Shown here: one piece after another, positions 2,579 through 59,622 of the stretch
Layout of the letters: every line of letters begins with the position of its first letter
Numbering within the stretch: position 1 is the first letter of the stretch
DNA from: Eledone cirrhosa
Lineage: Eukaryota
Assembly (NCBI GenBank): GCA_964016885.1
Contig: OZ024741.1
Span: forward strand, 207,824,001 to 207,888,000
Reading direction: 5' to 3'
Length of the DNA stretch: 64,000 bases
Notes under the pieces: generated by a model
Seen by the model: the letters and a program-made list of their open reading frames with translations, nothing else
Told to the model about the DNA's origin: nothing
Databases searched by the model: none
Translations under genes and position numbers: made by a program

Positions 2579-2712
2579 ACATACATGCACACATCGGTTT
2601 ACGGAACATTTATTATAATGCTCGGTTTGTTTGTAAACAAAAAAACAGCCCGAATTACGCCGTACAGTGTTTAGGCAACCACGTCACCTTTTTGTTCAAC
2701 ACTGACACAGGA

Positions 2713-2755
2713 ACGATGTACTAGTTTCAAGCTTATTAGCTATCGTCAGCATCGT
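2713..2755 (-). ncRNA. Minimal type I hammerhead ribozyme (family B)
   Basis: Reverse complement reads acgatg-CTGACGA-tagctaataagctt-GAAA-ctag-TA-catcgt. Confidence 0.9.
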
Positions 2756-3147
2756 ATACCTTCCTGCCCGATGGTTGAACGTCTGAAAGTATATACTTTC
2801 CGTATGCATATTAACGGATGAGCAGCCTAATTTGCATATCAATGCATTATAATAAATGTTCGGTAAACCGATACGTGCATGTATATATGTGTGCATGTAT
2901 GTATATATATACATAGTACTGTGCGTATGTATACATATATGTATGTACATATACATACATACTTACATTTAAGTAAGTGCCGTACTAAGAGTGAGAAATG
3001 AAATTTCGTTTCATTCTATTCCATTTATAGTTTTCGGTGTGCCCGGCCGACTCAACTCTATCGATATGCAAATTTGGCTGCTCAGCCGTTAATATGCATA
3101 AGGAAAGTATATACTTACAGACGTTCAACCATCTGGCAGGAAGGTTT

Positions 3148-3190
3148 ACGATGCTGACGATAGCTAATAAGCTTGAAACTAGTACATCGT
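3148..3190 (+). ncRNA. Minimal type I hammerhead ribozyme (family B)
   Basis: acgatg-CTGACGA-tagct aata agctt-GAAA-ctag-TA-catcgt. 6-bp stem I, palindromic stem III, GUA cleavage triplet. Confidence 0.92.
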
Positions 3191-3530
3191 TCCTGTGTCA
3201 GTGTTGAAAAAAGGTGACGTGGTTGCCTAAACACTGTACGGCGTAATTCGGGCTGTTTGTTTGTTTACAAACAAACAAACCGTGCATTATAATAAATGTT
3301 CGGTAAAGCGATACGTGCATGTATATATGTGTGCATGTATGTATATATATATACACACTACCGTGCGTCTGTATACATATATGAATGTACGTATACATAC
3401 ATACATACTTACATTTAAGTAAGTGCCGTACTAAGAGTGAGAAATGAAATTTCGTTTCATTCTATTCCATATATATATATATATATATATATATATATAT
3501 ATATATATATATATATATATATATATATAT

Positions 3531-57063: not shown

Positions 57064-57738
57064 AACTATCTGGCAGATGGGTAAACGGTGCTGATGATAG
57101 CTAACAAGCTTGAAACTAGTACATCGTTCCTGTGTCAGTGTTGAACAAAAAGGTGACGTGGTTGCCTTAACACCGTATGGCATAAATTTAGGCTGTTCAG
57201 TTTGTTTACAAACGAACAAAGCGACGTTATAATAAGCGCCTCTAAACTGATACGTGCATATATGTATGTGTACCTGTATGCATATGTATATATATATGTA
57301 TATTTATATATATATGTGCATGCTACTGTACGTCTGTATACATATATGTATGTACGTATACATGCATACTTACATTTAAGTAAGTGCCATACTAAGAGTG
57401 AGAAATGAAATTTCGCTTTCATTTTGTTTCAATTTATCGTTTTCGGTATGCCTGACCGATTTAACTCACTCAATATGCAAATTAGGCTGCTCAGCCGTTA
57501 ATTTTCATAAGGAAAGTATATACTTTCGAACGTTCAACTATCTGGCAGATGGGTAAACGGTGCTGATGATAGCTAACAAGCTTGAAACTAGTACATCGTT
57601 CCTGTGTCAGTGTTGAACAAAAAGGTGACGTGGTTGCCTTAACACCGTATGGCATAAATTCAGGCTGTTCAGTTTGTTTACAAACGAACAAAGCGACGTT
57701 ATAATAAGCGCCGCTAAACTGATACGTGCATATATGTA
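57064..57738 (+). mobile_element. Family B element, 472-bp period (~1.4 units), two HHRs (57085-57127, 57557-57599)
   Basis: acggtg-CTGATGA-tagctaacaagctt-GAAA-ctag-TA-catcgt occurs twice, 472 bp apart. Confidence 0.9.
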
Positions 57739-57739
57739 T

Positions 57740-59472
57740 TTCGAAGGCTATTTCTGGACTAAATTAGATAAATAGCCGAACTTTTCAAGGGCTAACTCCA
57801 TATATGGGAAGATTCTAGTTGTCAAAAGGATTGGTAAAAATTTCTTGTAAACACAATTAAATCTTTCATGGCGGTGGGTGGGGGTGGCTGAACTTGCCTG
57901 TAGAACAATGAGGGAGAGGGTGGAGCCATCAAGCGTTGAAAGTGAATTCTATACAGCAAATTCTAAGGAGTGTGGTTAGCTAGAAAGCAGGCGAAAAAAG
58001 AATTCAGGAGGAATCTGAGAGTGGGAAGTTATAAAATTAAAAAATTAATAAATTTAATTAAAAAATTATTAAATAATTGTTTCTACTTTAGGCACAAGGC
58101 CAGCAATTATCCAGTGCATTACTGGTACTTTATTTTATCGACCCCAAAAACCTAGAGTCTAAAACAGCTGCTATAATTTTAGGTGGTATTGCGTTTTCGG
58201 CCAATGCTATATAGAATTTACTGAGGTGGGGGTACTGAGGCTACAAAAGCCCGGTGGGCTGTATCAGGGTAAGCGAAAGAGGAAAAAAGAAAAGGAATAG
58301 GAGGGGTAGTGGAAGGAATTGAGAAGAAGAGATAAAGGGAAAGAAGAAAATAAGTACAGCTACCTATGTATGCTGGGGTTTCCCCTATCTTGTTCGGCAA
58401 GTGGGGAAAAGAAAGATGTTACAGCCATTTTCTACCCACCCGGGTCATGAGGGGGTTTGAGGGCGAGGTGAGTCCTATGGAATCGGTGTTTACATGCGGT
58501 TACAAGTTCGTCTTTTCTGTTTAGGAGTTGGTCCTTCGTAAACAGCATTTGTATCGTTTCCTCCGAGCATAAGTTACACGGACGGCGTCTTCCCGTGTAG
58601 GAGTTAACCCTGGAAAGTAAGATCCAAGTAAGATGGTATGTGATGTTATTATCGGGTCGGGTTTCTAAACGTATGTCGATGTTAAAGTCACAAGCGGTTA
58701 ATCCTCTATAGGCTCTGTTGGAGTTTTCCGCCCTTACGTTGCATTGGTAGATTACGTTACGTTCTTGGTATCTGTTGTTGAGGGGGCACGTAGATCTATC
58801 AGGGCAGTTATACCTCCTGGTCGGCTCTAATGTTTAGGTTGTTTCTTCCATAGGAGTTGAGTTTTTTGTTTTTGAGGAGGCGATGTTTTGTGCGAAGTTG
58901 GGTGTAGTGCTGTAGGAGAGTTTGATAATGTTTTTGTTGATTATGTTGTGGTAGCGGTGTTGTGGTGGGAAGTGTTTTTCGAGGAGCCTAAAGAAGATTT
59001 TCCCGATTGGTGTTGCAACCTCGTCATTGTGGGGAGGGTTGAACCACGTTACGTGGCGTGAGTGGCGGCGTCGACTGCTGGTTCTAGTTAGCCTAATTTC
59101 ATCCATACTCCTTAGAATTTGTTATATAGAATTAATTTTCAACGCTTGACCGGCTCCACCCACTCCCTCATTGTTCTACAGGCAAGTTCACCCACCTCAT
59201 CCCCACCCATTGCCATGAAAGATTTAATTGTGTTTACAAGAAATGTTGACCAATCCTTTTGACAACTACAATCTTCCCGTATATGGAATTACCCCTTGAA
59301 AAGTTCGGCTATTTATTACCACGCTAAAAATCTAATTTAGTCCAGAAATAGCCGTCGAAACGGCTTGAGCTCTGCCGTCGTGGTCTTGAACATTTTCCTA
59401 TTACCCACTCTACTACCCTAAGGACTATGGTGCGTTATGGTCCACATGGTTCCTTACGACACTTTCTTCGTT
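57740..59472 (-). mobile_element. Family F PLE, 5'-truncated (linker + GIY-YIG 58440-59100) with inverted pLTR 59105-59472
   Basis: RRRHSRHVTWFNPPHNDEVATPIGKIFF..IKLSYSTTPN. 59105-59360 is the reverse complement of 57740-57972. Confidence 0.87.
59291..59384 (+). ncRNA. Family F hammerhead with U3-A8 core
   Basis: acccc-TTGAAAA-gttcggctattt...aaatagccgtc-GAAA-cggc ttgagctct gccg-TC-gtggt. Confidence 0.75.
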
Positions 59473-59504
59473 ATATATATATATATATATATATATATGT
59501 ATAT

Positions 59505-59622
59505 AGTAATAATAATAAATTTGAAGACTAAAATCCAAAGAGGGCTCGATAAGGATAAATATATATAAAAAATATAAGAAAGCAGCGATTCTTTGCTTAA
59601 ACTTTAATCTGTTATTTTAATA
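59505..59622. mobile_element. Tiny fold-back remnant of the Penelope 1 pLTR
   Basis: 59505-59580 matches 3533-3609; 59579-59622 matches 14609-14652 (opposite sense). TA flanks. Confidence 0.8.

Follow-up and report, generated by a model that had tools for sequence, protein, structure and literature searches.

How are head-to-head inserts made in which two copies of one repeat, in opposite orientation, are joined at their 5' ends? The question is raised by a 64-kb stretch of the 3.0-Gb genome of Eledone cirrhosa (contig OZ024741.1, positions 207,824,001 to 207,888,000; hereafter the window), which has 36% GC, is dense in (TA)n, and carries Penelope-like elements (PLEs) and further repeats with hammerhead ribozyme motifs in this layout. 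Our analysis showed that the two arms are not equivalent, as each insert pairs one short with one long family-specific end. We consider it likely that, in a single event, both ends of a cut (TA)n tract act as primers for reverse transcription, at two different fixed sites on the same RNA. The observations behind this reading are the geometry of the inserts, the pairing of their ends, the haplotype shared by both arms, microhomology at the junctions, and duplications of 12-14 nt at the four informative sites.

Short ends are paired with long ends

Besides the window we used about 1.5 Mb of additional DNA, consisting of the loci of two retrozyme families, their neighbours, and 19 stretches of 40 kb picked by round coordinates (760 kb, "position-chosen" below). 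The sense of each arm was assigned from its hammerhead or open reading frame (ORF), and arms were confirmed by self-comparison. Measured in nucleotides past the hammerhead cleavage site, TA-flanked ends form two classes in 13 families, clearly so in all but family A, which has a sharp long end and a blurred short one. Short and long ends lie at 130/165 in H, 80/246 in I, 25/115 in B, 57/150 in C, 51/198 in D, 47/193 in E, 43/134 in F, 20/91 in G, 48/138 in J, 18/91 in M, 231/288 in N and 56/172 in O (E and N from a single locus each), and the offset in K is 43. The distance between the two ends, which we call the tail, is family-specific and amounts to 35-166 nt.

The pairing is strict in the 310-nt family H, sampled at 52 loci, 49 of them complete; 40 stretches had been selected by the long end, and 10 loci (found by a hammerhead pattern) plus the window locus without regard to ends, with L088 (a duplicate of L087) and L055 (an old fragment) left out of the counts. 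Divergent two-arm inserts make up 46 of the 49 complete loci, two are single-armed, one lies at an N stretch and none is convergent, and all 46 pair an end at 118-139 nt with one at 163-172 nt. Among 20 stretches of the 591-nt family I, selected by the short end, 15 are two-armed, all with one short and one long end, and five are single-armed. For family G we took 61 exact short ends from the first 81 Mb of C1 and searched for partners up to 7.1 kb away: a divergent long end was found for 21 (0.27 expected), and a convergent short-long arrangement for none. The position-chosen DNA, surveyed for 130 ends of 11 families (A, Lf, D2 and P excluded), gave 33 divergent pairs, 30 short plus long and three same-class.

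These pairs also bear on the layout itself, which the original prediction had described as arms with outward-pointing 3' ends, usually in (TA)n. Same-family TA-flanked ends up to 7 kb apart are divergent in 33 cases and convergent in 10 in the position-chosen DNA, and when divergent pairs were collected without a TA requirement (in a table that includes internal unit ends), 59 of 66 ends were TA-flanked, against 10.9% of random sites. Because of this orientation and these flanks, the two-arm layout is not a product of chance. How common the layout is depends on the family. On a second look at the position-chosen DNA, a further 17 ends gained a complementary arm (null expectation 1.7% per try) and 49 stayed single, so that two-arm inserts make up about half of all inserts across families; twin priming as the default outcome therefore describes the youngest family, with its 46 of 49, but not the families together. 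In a SINE-like (short interspersed element) control family, four of 128 copies have close divergent neighbours. Exact matches to the hammerhead of one retrozyme number 4198 genome-wide, and family G has 3486 short and 5445 long ends.

The cause that had been proposed for twin priming was the self-complementarity of (TA)n, which would provide two equivalent primers and by itself make twin priming the default for any hammerhead RNA. The strongly TA-rich flanks and the likeness of the two DNA ends agree with this. On the RNA side, however, the primings are not equivalent: one arm starts at the short site and the other at the long site in 46 of 46 cases, and the long end has at most 2-3 nt of likeness to TA. 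About half of the inserts are single-armed, and a published inverted PLE insert with a tail has a discernible 9-bp target duplication (PMC3846280). Self-complementarity as the cause is thus unsupported, and we judge it improbable, a little more so than the fold-back explanation below.

In the window, 13 of the 16 loci of the original prediction, which counted at least 15 such insertions, have a minus arm followed by a plus arm, joined 5' ends, and (TA)n of at least 11 nt at both outer ends (starts at 2580, 3533, 8127, 14792, 21862, 23085, 26969, 29726, 38455, 43528, 46310, 52865 and 59499), and three (42834, 45280 and 57739) fit in part. Measured sizes of 129-4979 nt agree with the range of about 120 bp to 5 kb given there. 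About a dozen single-arm copies of the same families, absent from the earlier list, also lie in the window. The two-arm inserts are as follows, with PLE and retrozyme assignments as predicted from sequence:

2580..3468: family A, non-coding, tandem unit of ~440 nt; minus arm 2580-2843 (short end, hammerhead at 2749, minus strand), plus arm 2843-3468 (long end, hammerhead at 3154, plus strand); sits inside the TATATA stem III of a family C hammerhead (2532-2580)
3533..7655: Hydra-type PLE B, 2-nt arm overlap; minus arm 3533-7485 (long end; broken ORF for reverse transcriptase (RT) and GIY-YIG endonuclease, 4706-6852; upstream pseudo-long terminal repeat (pLTR), 6790-7485), plus arm 7484-7655 (short end)
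8127..10407: family D, no ORF match; short end on the minus arm (8127-8273), long end on the plus arm (8274-10407)
14792..19770: Hydra-type PLE E; short end on the minus arm (14792-15229); the plus arm (15231-19770) has a pLTR, a broken ORF (15582-18127), a second pLTR and the long end
21862..22164: family K; long end on the minus arm, short end on the plus arm together with a hammerhead-like core (22048, plus strand); junction placed only approximately, at about 21970-22020
23085..26789: 310-nt retrozyme H, 12 hammerheads, every unit identical; 6.75 units in the minus arm (23085-25178), which has the short end, and 5.2 in the plus arm (25179-26789), which has the long end
26969..27336: family F, elsewhere the 3' end of a coding PLE; minus arm (short end, hammerhead at 27061), plus arm (long end, hammerhead at 27148)
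29726..33378: 591-nt retrozyme I, U3-A8 hammerhead; short end on the minus arm (29726-31759), long end on the plus arm (31760-33378)
38455..38641: family G; short end on the minus arm (38455-38520), long end on the plus arm (38521-38641)
42834..43428: family Lf, partial fit; the inverted arms are old, with 76% likeness, and neither end has a TA run
43528..45256: Hydra-type PLE M; minus arm 43528-43723 (long end), plus arm 43721-45256 (endonuclease fragment, short end); each arm has sequence absent from the other
45280..45882: PLE M, partial; short end on the minus arm (45280-45347); the plus arm has an endonuclease fragment and lacks its 3' end, stopping in the 3' region at another insertion
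45890..46291: family A, absent from the earlier list; the left end is the long one, the right end the short one
46310..46958: family D2; long end on the minus arm, short end on the plus arm; the junction, at about 46708, is near-palindromic; (TG)n followed by (TA)n flanks the right side
52865..53252: family J, known elsewhere as a coding PLE's 3' end; short end on the minus arm, long end on the plus arm; the arms share 118 identical nt
57739..59471: PLE M, partial; minus arm 57739-58848, truncated on its outer side by a family A tandem; plus arm reaching the long end
59499..59627: PLE B mini-insert, 3-nt overlap; minus arm (long end), plus arm (short end)

Uninterrupted copies of the family C hammerhead that is split at 2580 lie at 10714 and 52575.

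One event and one template

In family H, at least two units are present in both arms at 33 of the 46 loci, and fixed variants are the same in both arms at 35 of 36 loci, whereas 5000 shuffles gave a mean of 8.4 and a maximum of 17; nine of the 14 haplotypes occur once. Arms of the same locus are also closer to each other than to arms of different loci in 35 of 41 cases in families B, F, G, I and J. Of the family H junctions free of inserts, 21 of 31 have an overlap of at least 2 nt, against 18% expected; a further 14 contain inserts, several of them copied from adjacent sequence. There is no TA at the arm junctions. At one locus an unrelated 272-nt sequence was captured between the arms of a 310-nt insert (L061:3399-3670). 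Target duplications of 12-14 nt are clear at four of 62 loci, with imperfect flanks, and the remaining loci are pure TA or unclear. A search for paralogous empty sites left five of 62 candidates, of which only L039 is convincing: a local duplicate of this site is empty of both arms. Strict end pairing, shared haplotypes and junction microhomology together uphold the view that both cut ends prime in a single event.

Two independent insertions in the same TA tract might be invoked instead, since families pile up in TA runs and 10 convergent neighbours occur in the position-chosen DNA. This would leave the junctions without TA, the strict short-long pairing, the shared haplotypes and the doubly empty L039 duplicate unaccounted for, and we consider it very improbable. 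Still less credible is an assembly artefact from fold-back chimeric reads. In its favour, the arms of young inserts are 99-100% identical, but their ends are fixed and unequal, aged pairs have 76-95% identity, and minus-to-plus joints of other copies occur in short-read contigs and raw reads of another sample; one of these raw-read joints has a single start place.

According to Arkhipova et al. (2013), whose model is one of fold-back or self-priming, an initial arm would serve as template for the other, a self-primed copy of it as DNA or antisense. Such copying would account for the shared haplotypes, and palindromic junctions have been a published argument for it (PMC3846280); near-palindromic junctions occur here in five of 17 cases in family I and at 46708. 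Symmetric junctions would, however, also be expected if both cDNAs stalled and annealed at an RNA hairpin, family H shows no excess of symmetry (5 of 48, 4.2 expected), and the variant pattern of the 591-nt insert in the window is not mirrored across its junction. At 43528 fold-back is excluded because each arm has sequence lacking in the other, and the arms of F and B loci likewise each have sequence of their own. The short arm is the longer one in 23 of the 46 family H loci, which does not exclude fold-back in tandem families. Fold-back may account for some of the near-palindromic junctions; as an explanation of the two-arm inserts we regard it as unlikely. At L141:6496-6969, the flanks of a 591-nt insert are inverted copies of each other.

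Several observations weigh against priming by both cut ends on one template. About half of the inserts look single-armed, including all five position-chosen 591-nt copies, and the near-palindromic junctions of family I exceed the 0.8 expected, as fold-back predicts. The outer two units of the minus arm of the window's 591-nt insert differ in variant from the remaining units, and arms at L070, L061 and L090 contain mixed units; a single monomer circle does not explain such arms, and therefore a linear multimer or a template switch would be needed there. Two RNAs made at a single source locus, or later conversion, could likewise give both arms the same haplotype. No empty allele was recovered from reads or contigs for 40130-48500 and L053, where the tables were swamped by repeats. 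Past the long end, families A, H and N have a different, GC-rich stem from that described below, and in the ~1.5 Mb fetched we found no ORF-linked copy or autonomous partner of H, I, A and N.

If both cut ends do prime, the reaction might run as follows. A PLE ribonucleoprotein, probably a dimer, would cut both strands ~12-14 nt apart, and each DNA 3' end would start a cDNA at one of two RNA sites, whose spacing is the tail. The length of each cDNA would be random and could amount, on a retrozyme circle, to as many as 15 or more turns, and the two cDNA ends would then be joined via 2-5-nt microhomology or short templated inserts. A single-arm copy would be one in which only one priming survived or an arm was lost, and families would pile up because each insert leaves new TA ends. 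As the outer ends lie 18-290 nt past the cleavage site, the starts would be internal, as on a circle or an uncleaved multimer; for most retrozyme inserts we lean towards a circle, a prediction made from the DNA. In L1 twin priming, both target ends also prime and microhomology joins the cDNA ends, leaving an inverted 5' segment. There the second primer is used at variable internal sites and the arms do not overlap, whereas here both sites are fixed and the arms overlap in sequence.

A small predicted stem in which GAG pairs with ACUC or GCUC, lying slightly 3' of the start sites, is a candidate signal for them. ACTC occurs within about 5-13 nt past the short end in eight of 14 families (background 3.7% per site; noticed post hoc), C, F, G, J and M having GAG as its partner, and a similar motif lies past the long end in B, E, G, I and O; folding of the tail regions gave no global structure common to families. 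More tentatively, PLE integration might be obligatorily asymmetric, with one dimer holding one RNA at two hairpin-marked sites, one per cut strand, and with two reverse transcriptases rolling round the same circle at once in retrozymes. We put this forward with some reserve. If true, it would account for the long-unexplained inverted arm and tail of PLEs, and animal retrozymes would be written into DNA by PLEs from circles, with a portable cis-signal.

Coding and non-coding families

Our type I hammerhead descriptor (core plus stems I-III, score of at least 10) matched 37 places in the window, against 0-2 in each of six shuffles. Rfam recovered none of the 37 and returned only microsatellite-driven microRNA noise, and folding of the minimal hammerheads was mostly no better than that of shuffles. 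By eye and BLAST we count ~14-18 hammerhead-like families in the window, so the earlier figure of about 12 was fair or slightly low. Helix III is short and palindromic in most of these hammerheads, a known trait of metazoan ones, and the U3-A8 core variant of the 591-nt unit has likewise been reported (PMC4209133). U3-A8 also appears in some copies of PLE M, others having mismatched cores, and the predicted motif of family B has a U4-to-A change in its core.

Hydra-clade PLEs have been defined by DKT in place of DKG, an RWK-like motif, a CxCX5C linker, hammerheads and insertion into (TA)n (PMC8557442). Translated ORFs have DKT in B and E, RWR in B and CxCX5C in B, E and M, and the order in B and E is RT first, then a GIY-YIG endonuclease at the C-terminus; all three families have a hammerhead in the pLTR and the (TA)n target. 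A Pfam search of 10 ORF fragments gave a weak GIY-YIG match in one (E 0.045) and no RT match, and the domain assignment is therefore made from motifs. We thus assign B, E and M as putative Hydra-clade PLEs by their motifs, hammerheads and target. At least one copy in each of families B, E, F, G, J and M runs on into a PLE ORF, the pLTR of family G lying before such an ORF in L154, and their short copies are therefore truncated PLE ends rather than separate non-coding RNAs. To this extent, at least six of the families that had been taken for unrelated and non-coding are nothing of the kind.

Non-coding tandem units with a type I hammerhead in each remain in H (310 nt), I (591 nt), A (~440-500 nt) and N (467 nt), which we classify as putative non-LTR retrozymes, with predicted self-cleavage and circular RNA. 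L151, considered as an ORF-bearing copy, was rejected as a chance long pair. Retrozyme inserts bear the signature of PLE insertion, namely an inverted truncated copy, a tail and a target duplication. Of the earlier proposal that non-coding hammerhead repeats use PLE machinery, the PLE-type geometry is thus seen, and the mobilising enzyme is one that we infer. For the present we place C, D, D2, K, Lf and O in neither the PLE nor the retrozyme class. Although two-arm inserts can be mistaken for miniature inverted-repeat transposable elements (MITEs) or satellites, a MITE or other DNA transposon with terminal inverted repeats was rejected, as the ends are unequal, the inner junction is random, and lengths range from 95 nt to >8 kb.

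Known systems and neighbouring sequences

The inverted copy, the one-sided tail, the TA bias and the hammerheads are already published for PLEs. Hydra-clade elements share RW-K/R, DKT and CxCX5C with those described here, as well as hammerheads, the (TA)n target and an inverted 5'-truncated copy with a tail (Craig et al. 2021, PMC8557442). That tail is given as 30-40 bp, "often" at one end, and is ascribed to endonuclease resolution, whereas the tails here are 35-166 nt, family-specific and strictly one per two-arm insert; the origin of tandem and inverted PLE inserts and of the tail was called undefined there. The inverted pLTR of Pen2a_Av has the same head-to-head arms, one-arm tail, junction overlap and target duplication (Arkhipova et al. 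2013, PMC3846280). Unlike in Pen2a_Av, the arms here can both be long and non-nested, and the junctions are mostly non-palindromic, which favours two primings over self-priming. The protein of Poseidon, a PLE of Anolis and a predicted dimer, cuts and extends both strands of AT-rich DNA in vitro and begins synthesis at two internal sites of the RNA, between which the tail lies (Frangieh et al. 2024, PMC11167929). Poseidon belongs to a different clade, its start site is reported not to differ between strands, and paired use of the sites in one insert is not described in the main text.

Metazoan non-LTR retrozymes have the same non-coding tandem units of 310-591 nt and type I hammerheads, and their mobilisation by PLEs from circular templates has been proposed (Cervera and de la Pena 2020, PMC7229834; Li et al. 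2026, 10.64898/2026.07.22.740005); as far as consulted, neither text describes two-arm inverted arrays, fixed paired ends or TA targeting. Hammerhead pairs on opposite strands have been noted (PMC4209133). In openly readable main texts, without supplements, we found no account of short ends strictly paired with long ones, of long tails that differ by family, or of retrozyme arrays with two arms of a single haplotype. Thousands of young copies in this genome may record the reaction, in which each cut strand has its own fixed start site and the template a single haplotype; this provides sharp predictions for the existing in vitro assay and makes the copying mechanism of non-coding ribozyme repeats testable.

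Several other sequences lie near the two-arm inserts. A 2.3-kb inverted duplication (418-2577 and 10669-12968, 90-95% identity) ends on one side at a family C short end and adjoins the plus arm of a PLE B copy (12971-14746, long end), which has a 40-nt piece of ORF in inverted orientation; it is possibly an insertion-linked rearrangement or a mixed-template insert. Beside the 310-nt array lies what we take to be a remnant of a mariner-like transposase (22197-23060), by its motifs and with no Pfam match. Further single-arm hammerhead-like families occur at 7694-7957, 11652 and 37274, and a very short motif at 7811 on the minus strand lies in a TA-flanked element. A single-armed SINE-like family of 190 nt is present at 1013-1203 and in about 10 further copies. 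A 97% palindrome at 40802-41144 has equal ends and neither a hammerhead nor a TA flank, and one of its arms is found again at 61528-61710.

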